A stretch of DNA of 64,000 nucleotides from Verrucomicrobiota bacterium (GTDB taxonomy: Bacteria; Verrucomicrobiota; Verrucomicrobiia; Limisphaerales; UBA11358), in assembly GCA_049516255.1 (NCBI GenBank), contig JBEKTH010000011.1, positions 10,348-74,347 on the forward strand, read 5' to 3'. Positions 16,949 through 44,141 of the stretch are shown in pieces (position 1 is the first letter of the stretch; the number at the start of each line of letters is the position of its first letter). The position numbers and the translations under genes are program-made. The notes beneath the pieces are model-generated. The model was not told the origin of the DNA, did no database searches, and worked only from the letters and a program-made list of their open reading frames with translations.

Positions 16949-17971
16949 CTATTTCAACTGCGCCGCCAGTTCCTCACCCAGCGCTGCCGCCTCAGCAATC
17001 GCGCGCTTCCCTTCGCTGTGTTTCGCCGGCCCGTGGTGGAACGAAACCGCGCGCATTTCCACCCGGCTGCCGTTGATTTCAGCGTAGGCGGCCACCGGAC
17101 TCTGGCAGCCGCCGCCCATCGCGCGCAAGAATGCCCGTTCCGCCGTCACGCAATGAAATGTGTTGAAATGATTCAGCCGCTCGCAAATTTTGGCGATGCG
17201 CTCGTCGTCTGCGCGAATCTCAATGCCGATCGCTCCTTGTCCGACACACGGCAACATCACGTCCACGTCCAGAACCGTCGCCAGCAGACCGTCCGGCACC
17301 GCGTCGCCGATGAGCCGTCCGTCCCGTTTGATTTCGAAATTCAACCGCGTGATGCCCGCCAGCGCGAGCACGGTCGCGTCCAGTTCACCACGCTCGGCGA
17401 CCTTCTGCATGCGGGTGGAAACGTTGCCGCGGATTTCCACGACATTTAAATCCGGCCGGGCGGCGAGTAATTGTTCCTTGCGCCGCGTGCTGCTGGTGGC
17501 GATGGTCGCCTTGGCCGGGAAATCCTTCAGTTTCAAGTGCGGCCGGAAACCGCGCAATGCGTCCTGGCCCGGCGCCCAGTCGGCCGAGGCCGTGTCGGTG
17601 GCGCGGCTCTTGATGAATTCGGCATCGCGATAGATCAACACGTCGCGCACGTCGGCGCGCTTGGGGGTGGCGGCGAGCACGAGACCGGCGGGCAGATCGG
17701 TCGGCAAATCCTTCAGGCTGTGCACGGCGAGGTCGGCCTGGCCCTTGACCAGCGCGACTTCAAGTTCCTTGGTAAACAAACCTTTGGGCAGGGCCTCACC
17801 CTTTTTCGCCATCGAGGCGGTCTGCATTTTGTCGCCGGTGGTCTTGATGATTTTTAGTTCGAAGCGCAGCCGGGGAAACGTTTCGCGGCATTGTGCGGCC
17901 ATCAGGTTGGCCTGCGCGAGCGCGAGCGCGCTGCCGCGCGTGGCGATGATGATGGGGCGTTCAACAGCCAT
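16949..17971 (-). CDS. hemC: Hydroxymethylbilane synthase (porphobilinogen deaminase)
   Basis: 340 aa. IIIATRGSALALAQ, LKDLPT and the CQGAIGIE-like (CVGQGAIGIE) region are present. Confidence 0.95.
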   Translation of the reverse strand: MAVERPIIIATRGSALALAQANLMAAQCRETFPRLRFELKIIKTTGDKMQTASMAKKGEALPKGLFTKELEVALVKGQADLAVHSLKDLPTDLPAGLVLAATPKRADVRDVLIYRDAEFIKSRATDTASADWAPGQDALRGFRPHLKLKDFPAKATIATSSTRRKEQLLAARPDLNVVEIRGNVSTRMQKVAERGELDATVLALAGITRLNFEIKRDGRLIGDAVPDGLLATVLDVDVMLPCVGQGAIGIEIRADDERIAKICERLNHFNTFHCVTAERAFLRAMGGGCQSPVAAYAEINGSRVEMRAVSFHHGPAKHSEGKRAIAEAAALGEELAAQLK

Positions 17972-18026: not shown

Positions 18027-19214
18027 TCAGGGTTTTGCTGGTGCTGTTTCCAATCTATGTGCATCTGTGTTTATCTGTGGCTGGATGATTTTCGGTACAA
18101 GCAGTGGCTTGACCTTCTCGGCAATGATGGCCTCGCACCGCGCGATTTCGTCCTGGCGCTGCTTCAGATAATCGTCGGCGATGGCCTGCAAATCATCGAT
18201 GTTATAAAGATAGACGTTCTCCAGAAAATTCACCGCCGGATCGATGTCGCGCGGCACCGCGATATCAATGAGCAATAAGGGGCGTTGCTTGCGCGCCTTC
18301 ATCAGCGGTTCGAGTTTCGCGCGGTCCAGAATGTGATGCGGCGCCGAGGTGCTGCTGATGACGATGTCGACCTTCTCAAACTCCGTTGCCCAATCGTCAA
18401 AGGGCACGGCGCGCCCGCCGAATTCCCCGGCCAGGACTTGCGCGCGCTCGAACGAACGGCCGGCAATGATGATGCTACGTGCGCCGCGCGAGAGCAGGGC
18501 GCGGGCGGTTTTCTCGCTCATCTCGCCGGCGCCAATGACGAGCACATCGCGGTTGTTGAGCGAGTTGAAAATCTTCTCCGCGAGTTCGACCGCGGCGGAC
18601 GCCACGGAAACGCTGCCGCGCTGGATGCTGGTGTGCGTGCGGACGTGTTTGGCCACGTGAAAAGCGCGTTGGAACGCCTTGTTCAACCGCGCGCCGGTAT
18701 GGCCATGCTGCTGCGCGAGCGCGTAAGCCTCTTTGAGCTGGCCCAGGATTTCCGTTTCACCGAGCACCATCGAGTCCAGTCCGCACGCCACCTTGAACAG
18801 GTGCTGCAGGCTCTGCGGCTCGGCCAGCGTGTAAAGTTCATCACCAGACAACTGGACTCCCTCGCCCCGCCCAAGCGGGGAGAGGGAAGGGGCAAGGGGA
18901 TTTGAATTTGAGAAAACGGCCTCCTCTCCCCGGCCCGCTCCTCGTTGAGGAGAGGGAGAATGTTCCAGTAATTGGGAGTTTCCACTCCACTGGATCAGGA
19001 ATTTTTTCAGTTCCTCAAACGCCACCGCCGGTCCCTGGGCCGCGGCGGCGTAGATTTCCACGCGATTGCACGTGGAAAGGATGACGGCTTCGGCGATACC
19101 CGATTCACGGAGCGATTTGAGCGCGGCGGGGATTTTCGTTTCGGCAAAGGTGAACCGTTCCCGCAGTTCCACGGGCGACGAATGATGGCTCAAACCGATG
19201 ACGACGACGTTCAT
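18027..19214 (-). CDS. hemA: Glutamyl-tRNA reductase
   Basis: MNVVVIGLSHHSSPVELRE...STCNRVEIY...GLDSMVLGETEILGQLK...VIGAGEM motifs. The start is set at the ATG at 19214. It contains an in-frame repeat insertion and a repeat-encoded C-terminal tail. Confidence 0.9.
   Translation of the reverse strand: MNVVVIGLSHHSSPVELRERFTFAETKIPAALKSLRESGIAEAVILSTCNRVEIYAAAAQGPAVAFEELKKFLIQWSGNSQLLEHSPSPQRGAGRGEEAVFSNSNPLAPSLSPLGRGEGVQLSGDELYTLAEPQSLQHLFKVACGLDSMVLGETEILGQLKEAYALAQQHGHTGARLNKAFQRAFHVAKHVRTHTSIQRGSVSVASAAVELAEKIFNSLNNRDVLVIGAGEMSEKTARALLSRGARSIIIAGRSFERAQVLAGEFGGRAVPFDDWATEFEKVDIVISSTSAPHHILDRAKLEPLMKARKQRPLLLIDIAVPRDIDPAVNFLENVYLYNIDDLQAIADDYLKQRQDEIARCEAIIAEKVKPLLVPKIIQPQINTDAHRLETAPAKP
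18050..18085. repeat. ATCTGTG-type tandem repeat (period 10), copy C
   Basis: atctatgtgc atctgtgttt atctgtggct. It lies inside the last codons of the hemA ORF and is inverted relative to copy B, 37 nt away. Confidence 0.8.
18857..18960. repeat. Two GC-rich palindromic (REP-like) units inside the hemA coding sequence
   Basis: Unit 1 is ctccctcgccccgc-ccaa-gcggggagaggga. Unit 2 is ctcctctcc...ggagagggag. In the hemA frame they encode SPSPQRGAGRGEE...SLSPLGRGEGV. Confidence 0.75.
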
Positions 19215-19218
19215 TGCA

Positions 19219-19303
19219 GGCAGGTGACGGGTGACAAGTGGCAGGTGACAAGACAAGGCAGGCTATCCAGCCCGCGCCACTTTTCACTTGTCACTTGCCA
19301 CAT
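19219..19303. repeat. Tandem-heptad inverted repeat (unit GGTGACA)
   Basis: Left arm caggtga cgggtga caagtgg caggtga caag. Right arm ccacttttcacttgtcacttgccac, with 10 of 11 complementary (gtgacaagtgg). It lies between the hemX-like gene and hemA. Confidence 0.8.
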
Positions 19304-20727: not shown

Positions 20728-22170
20728 ATGTCAACCGTGAAGCAAAGGAAGCCGGGCGGATGCGATTCTCAATGCAATCTTGCCAAGCGCGTTGGTGTTT
20801 TGTCTAATCCGTCCGTGCTCAATCAGCAGACGCTCAACCGTCCCGCCAGTTTTTCCGGCATCGGCCTGCACAGCGGCAACCGGGTGAACATGACCATTCT
20901 GCCCGCGCCGGCGAACAGCGGCGTGCGATTCCGCCGCGTGGATCTGGAAGGCAAACCGGAAATTGAGGCCCGCGTGGAAAACGTGGGCGAGACCACCCGC
21001 TCGACCACGCTGGCCCGGGGCAACGTGAAAATCCACACCGTCGAGCACGTGCTGGCGGCGCTTGCCGGCTACGGCATTGACAACGCCATCATTGAACTGG
21101 ATTCCAACGAGCCGCCGATTGCCGACGGCAGTTCGCGCGAGTTCTGCAAAATCATCCAGGCCGCCGGCATCGTGCCGCAGGCGGAAAAGCGCGAGACGTA
21201 TTTGCCGACCGAGCCGATTGAACTGGAATCCGGCGAGACGGTGATGACGTTGTTTCCCGATGACGGTTTCAAGATCACCTGCACGAGCGCGGACAAGAGC
21301 GGCCGGTTCACGCAGTTTTACAGCACGGAAGTCACGCCCAAAACCTGGGAACGGGAACTGTCCCACGCGCGGACGTTTTGCTTTTACGAGGAGATCGAGC
21401 ATCTCATCAAAAACAATCTGATCAAGGGCGGCAGCCTGGAAAACGCGGTGGTCATCCGCGACGACGCGGTGCTGACGACCGAGCCGCTGCGGTATCCCGA
21501 GGAATTTGTGCGGCACAAGATGCTCGATATCGTGGGCGATCTCTCGTTGCTGGGACGCCCGGTGCGCGGGCATTTGATTGCCGTCCGGCCAAGCCACGCC
21601 GCGAATTGCGAGATGGTCCGCCTGATTTCCGCGCAGATGAACCGGCCATTGCGCGCGGCCCAGGCTTTTGGCCCACCGCCCGTTCCCGCCAAGGCGGACG
21701 GCGGAAGAACCGCCGCCCTGACCGAACTGATAAATGCCGGAACCGGATTGGACGCGATGCAGGTGATGCAAATCATTCCGCATCGCTACCCATTTTTGAT
21801 GGTGGATCGCGTGGTGAAAATTGACGGCAACAAAATCACGGCGATAAAAAACATCACGAACAACGAGCCGTATTTTCAAGGGCACTTTCCCGGACACCCC
21901 ATCATGCCGGGCGTGTTGCAGTTGGAAGCCATGGCGCAGGTCGCGGGCATTCTGATGTTGCGGCAGGCGGAGAACGCGGGGCAAATCGCCTACTTCATGT
22001 CCGCCGAGGAAGTGAAATGGCGCAAGCCCGTTCTGCCGGGGGATGTGCTGATCATCGAGGTCGAACTGGTCCGGTCGCGCGGAAAAATCGGCAAGGCCCA
22101 GGGCGTCTGCAAGGTCGGTGAGGAAATTGTAAGTGAAGCGGAAGTCACCTTCATGTTGCGCGACGCCTAA
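20728..22170 (+). CDS. lpxC/fabZ: Bifunctional UDP-3-O-acyl-GlcNAc deacetylase / 3-hydroxyacyl-ACP dehydratase
   Basis: 480 aa. The LpxC part has GIGLHSG, TVEHVLAAL and HKMLDIVGDL. The FabZ part has IPHRYPFLMVDRV and FQGHFPGHPIMPGVL. The exact start is uncertain. Confidence 0.93.
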   Translation: MSTVKQRKPGGCDSQCNLAKRVGVLSNPSVLNQQTLNRPASFSGIGLHSGNRVNMTILPAPANSGVRFRRVDLEGKPEIEARVENVGETTRSTTLARGNVKIHTVEHVLAALAGYGIDNAIIELDSNEPPIADGSSREFCKIIQAAGIVPQAEKRETYLPTEPIELESGETVMTLFPDDGFKITCTSADKSGRFTQFYSTEVTPKTWERELSHARTFCFYEEIEHLIKNNLIKGGSLENAVVIRDDAVLTTEPLRYPEEFVRHKMLDIVGDLSLLGRPVRGHLIAVRPSHAANCEMVRLISAQMNRPLRAAQAFGPPPVPAKADGGRTAALTELINAGTGLDAMQVMQIIPHRYPFLMVDRVVKIDGNKITAIKNITNNEPYFQGHFPGHPIMPGVLQLEAMAQVAGILMLRQAENAGQIAYFMSAEEVKWRKPVLPGDVLIIEVELVRSRGKIGKAQGVCKVGEEIVSEAEVTFMLRDA

Positions 22171-43989: not shown

Positions 43990-44141
43990 AAAGCTGCCGA
44001 CAGCGTAAGGCTTTGGAATGCCAGCGTCAATTGGTGGGGCGAGCGTATTCGCGAGCCGGCTAACGGTCAAAGCAGGGCAGCGACGGCTCGTCAGTAGCCT
44101 CGCCCCACCAAATCGGCGCCGGTCATATACCGACGCTACAA

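Follow-up and report, generated by a model that had tools for sequence, protein, structure and literature searches.

How does a dispersed palindromic repeat come to lie within the reading frame of a core enzyme, and why does it stay there? This question is raised by a 64,000-nucleotide (nt) stretch of contig JBEKTH010000011.1 (assembly GCA_049516255.1; hereafter the window) from a verrucomicrobial bacterium of the order Limisphaerales. Its glutamyl-tRNA reductase (GluTR) gene hemA, on the minus strand, contains a GC-rich bipartite palindromic repeat of 103 nt (18857..18959, minus strand; nhmmer E = 3.7e-28), which lies in frame as HemA residues 86-120. The answer that we consider very likely is that a selfish, non-autonomous palindromic repeat sits in a permissive loop of HemA, where it is translated along with the enzyme and is kept because it does not harm it. 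The initial annotation of this DNA had noted the palindromes, an unusually long HemA segment and an unbroken frame, and all three observations are borne out by the data below.

The hemA reading frame extends over 409 amino acids (aa) from a TTG (18027-19256, minus strand). Gene calls in public records start instead at the ATG at 19214, which gives 395 aa plus the stop (18027..19214, minus strand), and HemA residue numbers are counted from this start. The product has Pfam matches to GlutR_N and to the NADP-binding domain Shikimate_DH, and is identified as glutamyl-tRNA reductase by the equivalog model TIGR01035 (hemA; 358.3 bits, cut-off 209.55) together with the STCNR motif; this catalytic cysteine motif, S47 T48 C49 N50 R51, is intact and invariant in 46 aligned sequences including HemA of the window. 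The TIGR01035 match falls into two stretches split by the insert, and the GlutR_N match spans 190 residues (20-209) for a profile of 151 positions. Between CNRVEIY and GLDS the protein has 89 aa, as against 49 aa in most relatives, which amounts to 40 extra codons. The frame is open through the whole element (...EHSPSPQRGAGRGEEAVFSNSNPLAPSLSPLGRGEGVQL... in the HemA translation), S86-V120 being the translated element, SPSPQRGAGRGEEAVFSNSNPLAPSLSPLGRGEGV, and a tryptic peptide GEEAVFSNSNPLAPSLSPLGR is predicted from the insert region. An assembly artefact is excluded as the source of the insert, because the records of 11 contigs give precisely this 395-aa protein and the same insert is present in metagenome-assembled genomes of independent studies; a version identical at 394 of 395 residues comes from one further contig.

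In coding sense, the element begins with its 5' unit, hairpin 1 (CTCCCTCTCC..GGAGAGGG), which appears at 18934..18956 (minus strand) as CTCCCTCTCCTC-AAC-GAGGAGCGGG; the 10-nt arms of this inverted repeat I4 (18934-18943/18947-18956) are 90% complementary. There follow a GGGGnGAGGAGG segment, a variable AT-richer spacer and a CCCCTCGCCCC segment, and the 3' unit closes the element as hairpin 2 (CCCTCTCCCCGC..GCGGGGnGAGGG). The latter, CCCTCTCCCCGC-TTGG-GCGGGGCGAGGG at 18858..18887 (minus strand), is inverted repeat I1, with 13-nt arms (18858-18870/18875-18887) that are 92% complementary and with pairs that are invariant or nearly so across 14 aligned copies. The middle part (18888..18933, minus strand) contains pairable GGGG..GAGG and CCCC..CCCC segments around the spacer at 18901-18920, as folded with RNAfold and RNAalifold, and is the most variable portion of the repeat family. 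Two cross-unit inverted repeats, I2 and I3, were also found in the hemA element. In a canonical copy of the family, the comparison of the reverse complement of unit 1 with unit 2 yields 21, whereas the direct comparison yields 7 and the maximum of 500 shuffles is 13. The two palindromes are the inverted arms of one composite 103-nt element and not separate insertions, because full-length copies recur elsewhere in the genome (nhmmer E 1e-28 to 1e-33). Of the two repetitive extragenic palindromic (REP)-type units that had initially been proposed, the dispersed palindromic repeat, which is also intergenic, is thereby retained and the notion of two independent units is given up.

Eleven further codons, QWSGNSQLLEH (18960..18992, minus strand), were recognized by loop comparison between the conserved FL and the element. 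They are without counterpart in the 49-aa baseline loop; relatives have at this place RWGETPGEP, the left arm of another palindromic repeat, which the DNA of these codons may, judged by eye, faintly resemble. A sub-threshold Rfam match to Antizyme_FSE lies on the strand opposite hemA (window 18853-18902, plus strand; 28.8 bits, gathering score 40), and we set it aside together with miRNA matches as below threshold and most likely chance matches of a GC-rich hairpin.

That the element recurs, as had been supposed, is evident from a survey of the genome (G000; 3.4 Mb, 92 contigs, 95.8% complete, 58% GC). A loose hairpin pattern finds 33 sites. With an nhmmer profile built from five complete copies, the matches at E < 1e-3 merge into 35 loci, of which about 12 are full-length and the others single units. 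The hemA element aligns with full-length copies on contigs C17, C19, C24, C55, C20 and C21. Family copies are 103-113 nt long and end in CTCCCTC(T/G)CC...GG(A/C)GAGGGAG. Of 24 genomes sampled from the genus, 17 contain the family, as do 8 of 17 genera within the order; several genomes have at least 20 matches each, numbers that in this order-wide survey are matches and not exact copy numbers.

At nine of the 35 loci, a long open frame codes for real protein on either side of the repeat, and the hosts are eight genes confirmed by Pfam. Besides HemA (element at aa 86-120), these encode an AddA-type UvrD helicase (aa 482-520, between DEYQD and GDxKQSIYRFR), RecF (aa 99-137), PriA (aa 754-772, within PriA_C), Mfd with two elements (aa 361-376 and 1087-1103), AddB (aa 734-761), PurL (from residue 157) and TsaD (aa 161-179, splitting the domain). 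Five of the eight, namely addA, addB, recF, priA and mfd, are replication or repair genes. The recF site is empty (GQGEHE) in most relatives, the insert being common to G011 and G004, and the addA site is empty in G001, G002, G006, G011 and G012 and filled in G003 and G005. Each genome has its own set of repeat-bearing genes. A repeat tolerated in a core enzyme, which had been regarded as unusual, is therefore not so: this genome holds eight further cases, and others are documented for Opitutus terrae (PMC3733652) and for Rickettsia (Ogata 2000 and 2002, as cited in PMC10969869).

The relatives also provided observations of their own. G003 has a full-length in-frame copy in a histone-deacetylase-like gene (L152 805-1959, minus strand), placed before FDFDVHHGNG, and G011 has one in the gene of an Lnt-like N-acyltransferase fusion (L153 131-1990, plus strand). 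In the genome of the window, copies stand just upstream of the genes for DAHP synthase and squalene-hopene cyclase (C30:26986-27145 and C42:7401-7459), possibly within 5' untranslated regions. The idea that the length of the element is tuned to a multiple of three was rejected, as the lengths of 103-113 nt cover all residues modulo 3; two to five of the six frames are open in family copies, which seems unremarkable for GC-rich DNA.

When did the repeat enter hemA? The loop between CNRVEIY and GLDS is short in 27 of 29 genus- and order-level relatives, and the 49-aa baseline loop is found in 48 of the 68 sequences read from a wider GTDB set. At least seven other species (L040, L041, L042, L044, L045, L046 and L108) have the full element at the hemA site seen here and read it in the same frame; their hemA DNA is 78-82% identical to that of the window, and about 60% identical at third positions. 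All aligned hemA copies have in common their orientation, their frame and a shortened hairpin 1, which lacks 5-6 nt compared with the dispersed copies. If unpaired positions are compared, the G000 hemA copy shares 71-83% identity with its counterparts in other species, but only 34-66% with the dispersed copies in the same genome. Because of these common features and the closer match at unpaired positions, the hemA copies of different species are orthologous. Orthologous copies in species whose hemA genes are only 78-82% identical imply, in turn, that the insertion is old, and the recent insertion considered in the initial annotation is contradicted.

Could the G000 copy nevertheless be a separate and more recent arrival in an insertion hot spot? 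In the HemA tree, the neighbours of G000 are two element-free genomes, and the main insert-bearing clade lies elsewhere; the loop attracts several repeat families, and the dispersed copies are likewise 85-90% alike between species. A second landing would, however, have had to reproduce the orientation, the frame and the short hairpin 1 of all the other hemA copies, and the spacer and loops, too, match the copies of other species better than those of the own genome, in the proportions given above. The insert is, moreover, fixed in all 12 contigs on record for the species. We therefore regard an independent insertion as improbable and retain a single old insertion of a harmless repeat as the preferred account.

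The loop has not been static since. In the hemA of two further species (L047 and L048), the element has lost 63 nt from its interior without a change of frame, so that one hairpin remains (SSPSPQRGEGRGEGVEP); in our reading of the sequence, this deletion may have fallen between GGGGCGAGG direct repeats. The nearest hemA relatives, L043 and L062 (87-90% DNA identity, and 80-90% when taken by segment), lack the element and have other modules in its place. The loops of relatives contain a second long palindrome, RWGETPGEP...SGSRGRSPHQ, a GGACGGCGC-AGC-GCGCCGTCC hairpin read as DDRTAQRAVPT and a GCGGAGCTCCGC palindrome read as GVAELRPPK, and the L062 loop holds a further distinct repeat. Three of the four other modules tested are dispersed repeats in the genome of the window as well (8, at least 12 and 2 blastn hits). 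The close relatives thus do not all share one conserved, non-palindromic loop: most have the short loop, and the closest have other palindromes. Taken together, the loop sequences point to repeated gain, loss and replacement of repeats. An import of the loop by recombination from the insert-bearing clade was rejected, as no local rise in identity was seen beside the loop. The right arm of the SGSRGRSPHQ-type repeat (CCGGCTCGCGAGGACGCTCGCCCCACC) was also noticed elsewhere in the window, at about 44032-44059 (G000 C11:54379-54406); it has 8 blastn hits genome-wide.

What is being conserved within the insert, the nucleotides or the peptide? Between species, the insert is 86-90% identical overall and 80-89% identical at third positions, where the remainder of hemA reaches about 60%. 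In an alignment of seven hemA copies, variation affects 5 of 60 paired columns and 21 of 41 unpaired ones (Fisher p = 1.8e-6), and most variable columns of the element are unpaired positions, for example in the loops and the spacer. Variation shows no effect of codon position: for positions 1 to 3, variable columns number 1/21, 2/20 and 2/19 among the paired and 5/12, 8/14 and 8/15 among the unpaired. Intergenic copies follow a similar pattern, with 15 of 60 paired and 39 of 47 unpaired columns variable, and at paired columns the G000 hemA copy is 90-95% identical to them. The stems differ so little that covariation is all but absent; one pair in 30 shows a compensatory change, which is evidence neither for nor against a structural function. 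By this pattern, the constraint is on the DNA or RNA hairpin and not on the peptide, which is free to drift. Since these stems are preserved as well in copies that lie between genes or within unrelated ones, the stem constraint is a property of the repeat family; its cause may be the structure, a sequence-specific binder or gene conversion.

This last point bears on the suggestion that the hairpins act in cis on the hemA transcript, by ribosome pausing, mRNA stability or haem-responsive control, and that the stems are kept for this reason. The stems indeed hardly differ among species whose hemA genes have diverged at about 40% of third positions, and the region folds better than shuffles (-60.7 kcal/mol for the 136-nt stretch with the palindromes, z = -2.46). 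Yet the stems are equally conserved where no hemA is present, in intergenic copies and in unrelated genes; the element is absent from the closest relatives and most of the order, and a derivative with one hairpin survives in two species. No Rfam family reaches the gathering score in the hemA insert, no terminator- or promoter-like site lies within it, and the single compensatory change adds little to the case. A regulatory role in hemA is hence quite unlikely, and of the mRNA-level action that had been proposed only the constraint on the stems at the nucleotide level stands, as a feature of the family and not of hemA regulation. Domestication of the encoded peptide as a functional GluTR loop, for example a regulatory or partner-binding segment, is highly improbable: the element is kept at the same site in at least eight species and the peptide looks conserved (SSPSPRRGEGRGEE...LSPLGRGEGV), but its conservation tracks base-pairing and not codon position, 14 of the 19 variable codons of the insert change the residue, the segment is predicted to be disordered and is lost or replaced in the nearest relatives, and similar peptides occur in unrelated proteins simply from the same DNA being read.

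Can the enzyme accommodate such a segment? An AlphaFold2 model of HemA, built with the 46-sequence alignment, has a mean predicted local distance difference test score (pLDDT) of 84.8 and a predicted template modelling score of 0.78, and its top Foldseek matches are the GluTR structures 1GPJ and 4N7R (4N7R TM-score 0.72). Residues 86-118 are the sole segment with pLDDT < 50 and form a coil between the helices 62-76 and 80-84 and the strand 128-131, at a site within the catalytic domain. The model thus agrees with the loop that had been assumed for the insert, and predicts this loop to be disordered.

The genome encodes a second complete glutamyl-tRNA reductase on contig C23 (L151 943-2136, plus strand), which is 52% identical to HemA of the window, scores 383 bits against TIGR01035, has the STCNR motif and possesses a short loop without the repeat. 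The description of the interrupted gene as an essential hemA is right as to hemA, but the argument from essentiality is weakened by this insert-free equivalog. Two hemA copies are also present in several relatives. In both paralogs (window 18027-19214, minus strand, and L151), the TIGR01035 match stops near position 330 of the 416-position profile, and a GlutR_dimer domain is missing from the Pfam results; in the model, the C-terminal dimerisation domain of HemA seems to be reduced to one helix (residues 354-372) and a disordered tail. Directly downstream of hemA in the window lies hemC (16949-17971). An open reading frame of 480 aa at 20728-22170 (plus strand) seems, by eye, to join an LpxC-type deacetylase to a FabZ-type dehydratase.

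We propose the following course of events. A repeat with two inverted hairpin units of about 40 nt, a spacer and the ends CTCCCTC...GAGGGAG, organized like a REP doublet that forms a hairpin (REPIN), would have entered the DNA for a surface loop of HemA long ago, in an ancestor from which a group of Limisphaerales-type Verrucomicrobia of soil and peat descends. The gene would have stayed intact because the insert in total is a multiple of three and the element is stop-free in the frame used. The element would then have been translated as a disordered low-complexity loop that HemA tolerates, probably at little cost to the enzyme. From then on, the loop may have evolved much as a cluster of repeats between genes does: further palindromic families inserted next to the element, in-frame deletions removed parts of the loop, and the element was lost from some lineages. 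The peptide is not under selection, and the stem sequence is conserved as a family property wherever the repeat sits.

Several observations weigh against this account. A neutral element leaves near-invariant stems in need of a cause, for which family-level selection, gene conversion and recognition by a factor are candidates. If the element entered once and long ago, it must have been lost several times afterwards on the HemA tree, where two insert-free sequences nest within the main insert-bearing clade. With regard to mobility, none of the six Y1_Tnp genes in the 95.8% complete genome, which resemble REP-associated tyrosine transposases (RAYTs), is flanked by the hemA repeat family. Nor did we find in G000 an insertion sequence with family ends or a pair of ends 0.4-4 kb apart that encloses a transposase, the sole pair of family ends within 4 kb being two separate copies on C24. 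The filled recF and addA sites differ from the empty ones by extra non-repeat bases, and show no clear target-site duplication. Finally, we infer translation of the insert only from its kept frame, which has been maintained through many loop variants including the 63-nt deletion.

The Y1-transposase genes appear to have partners of their own. Five of the six, on C8, C16, C1, C17 and C5, possess their own small perfect flanking hairpins, which differ from the hemA family (for example, C8 58519-58539 and 59009-59029; C16 49904-49923 and 50474-50493), and one has none; the nearest family copy lies about 1.3 kb away from the C17 gene, beyond two intervening genes. The distinct hairpins therefore indicate several separate REP-type systems in this genome. 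Near-invariance of the stems over long times, even within reading frames, and the use of HemA, RecF and AddA loops as landing pads by several palindromic families unrelated to each other could also mean that a host or element-encoded factor targets existing hairpins in single-stranded DNA, which we offer as a speculation with some small chance of being correct. If it were true, it would imply a RAYT-independent system of mobilisation or maintenance specific to these Verrucomicrobia, with coding loops as a regular rather than an accidental habitat of the repeats.

The hemA locus provides a well-dated case of repeat DNA in a core enzyme, in which the same copy can be traced through at least eight species beside losses and replacements. 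It also makes two constraints separable in one reading frame, conserved stems on the one hand and a drifting peptide on the other. For annotation, our results suggest that GEGRGE/SPLP-type low-complexity loops in verrucomicrobial proteins should be read as repeat-derived and not as functional motifs.

How does this family relate to known systems? By its terminal inverted repeats and small size of 103-113 nt, it is built like a miniature inverted-repeat transposable element. REPINs, described by Bertels and Rainey in 2011, are reportedly REP doublets that form hairpins and are associated with RAYT transposases. The hemA family is like them in its two inverted units with a short spacer, in its dozens of copies per genome and in being kept across related species. 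It is unlike them in that a perfect or near-perfect hairpin is formed by each unit on its own, one locus in four is intragenic, and the search of G000 identified no cognate RAYT with family members at its flanks.

Intragenic REPs tagged with GTAG or CGTC have been surveyed by Di Nocera, De Gregorio and Rocco in 2013, who found the highest numbers in the verrucomicrobium Opitutus terrae and in R. conorii and many in replication and repair genes (PMC3733652). The hemA family is like them in that small stem-loops, often head-to-head dimers, lie inside genes, add about 20-30 or more residues and in many cases occupy replication and repair genes (PMC3733652). In contrast to those REPs, the hemA family has neither tag beside its stems, where the commonest flanks are CCCCGG or CCCCAA (5') and ACGGGG or AGTTCA (3'), and flanks no RAYT gene of the genome. 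Because it lacks both the tags and the RAYT association, the family is not a member of the GTAG/CGTC-REP or RAYT-flanking families; it works like them. The phenomenon and its replication and repair bias having been described in 2013 (PMC3733652), our case opens no new question.

Another functional parallel is provided by the Rickettsia palindromic elements (RPEs; Ogata 2000, 2002), summarised in PMC10969869 as in-frame palindromic repeats in housekeeping genes. Like the RPEs, the hemA family consists of dispersed palindromes that lie in frame in several unrelated intact genes; for the hemA family, empty sites are seen in orthologues. The parallel includes a repeat length of about 100-150 nt, many in-frame copies in unrelated housekeeping genes, extra peptide at fold-compatible sites and insertions common to several species (PMC10969869). 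The differences concern host and composition: a free-living soil or peat Verrucomicrobium of 58% GC instead of an AT-rich obligate intracellular bacterium, and a GC-rich element that is an inverted dimer of hairpin units. The likeness to RPE families 1-10 would accordingly be one of functional class, homology being unlikely from composition and host. The kind of event is one already described for Rickettsia and Opitutus, to which hemA adds another instance.

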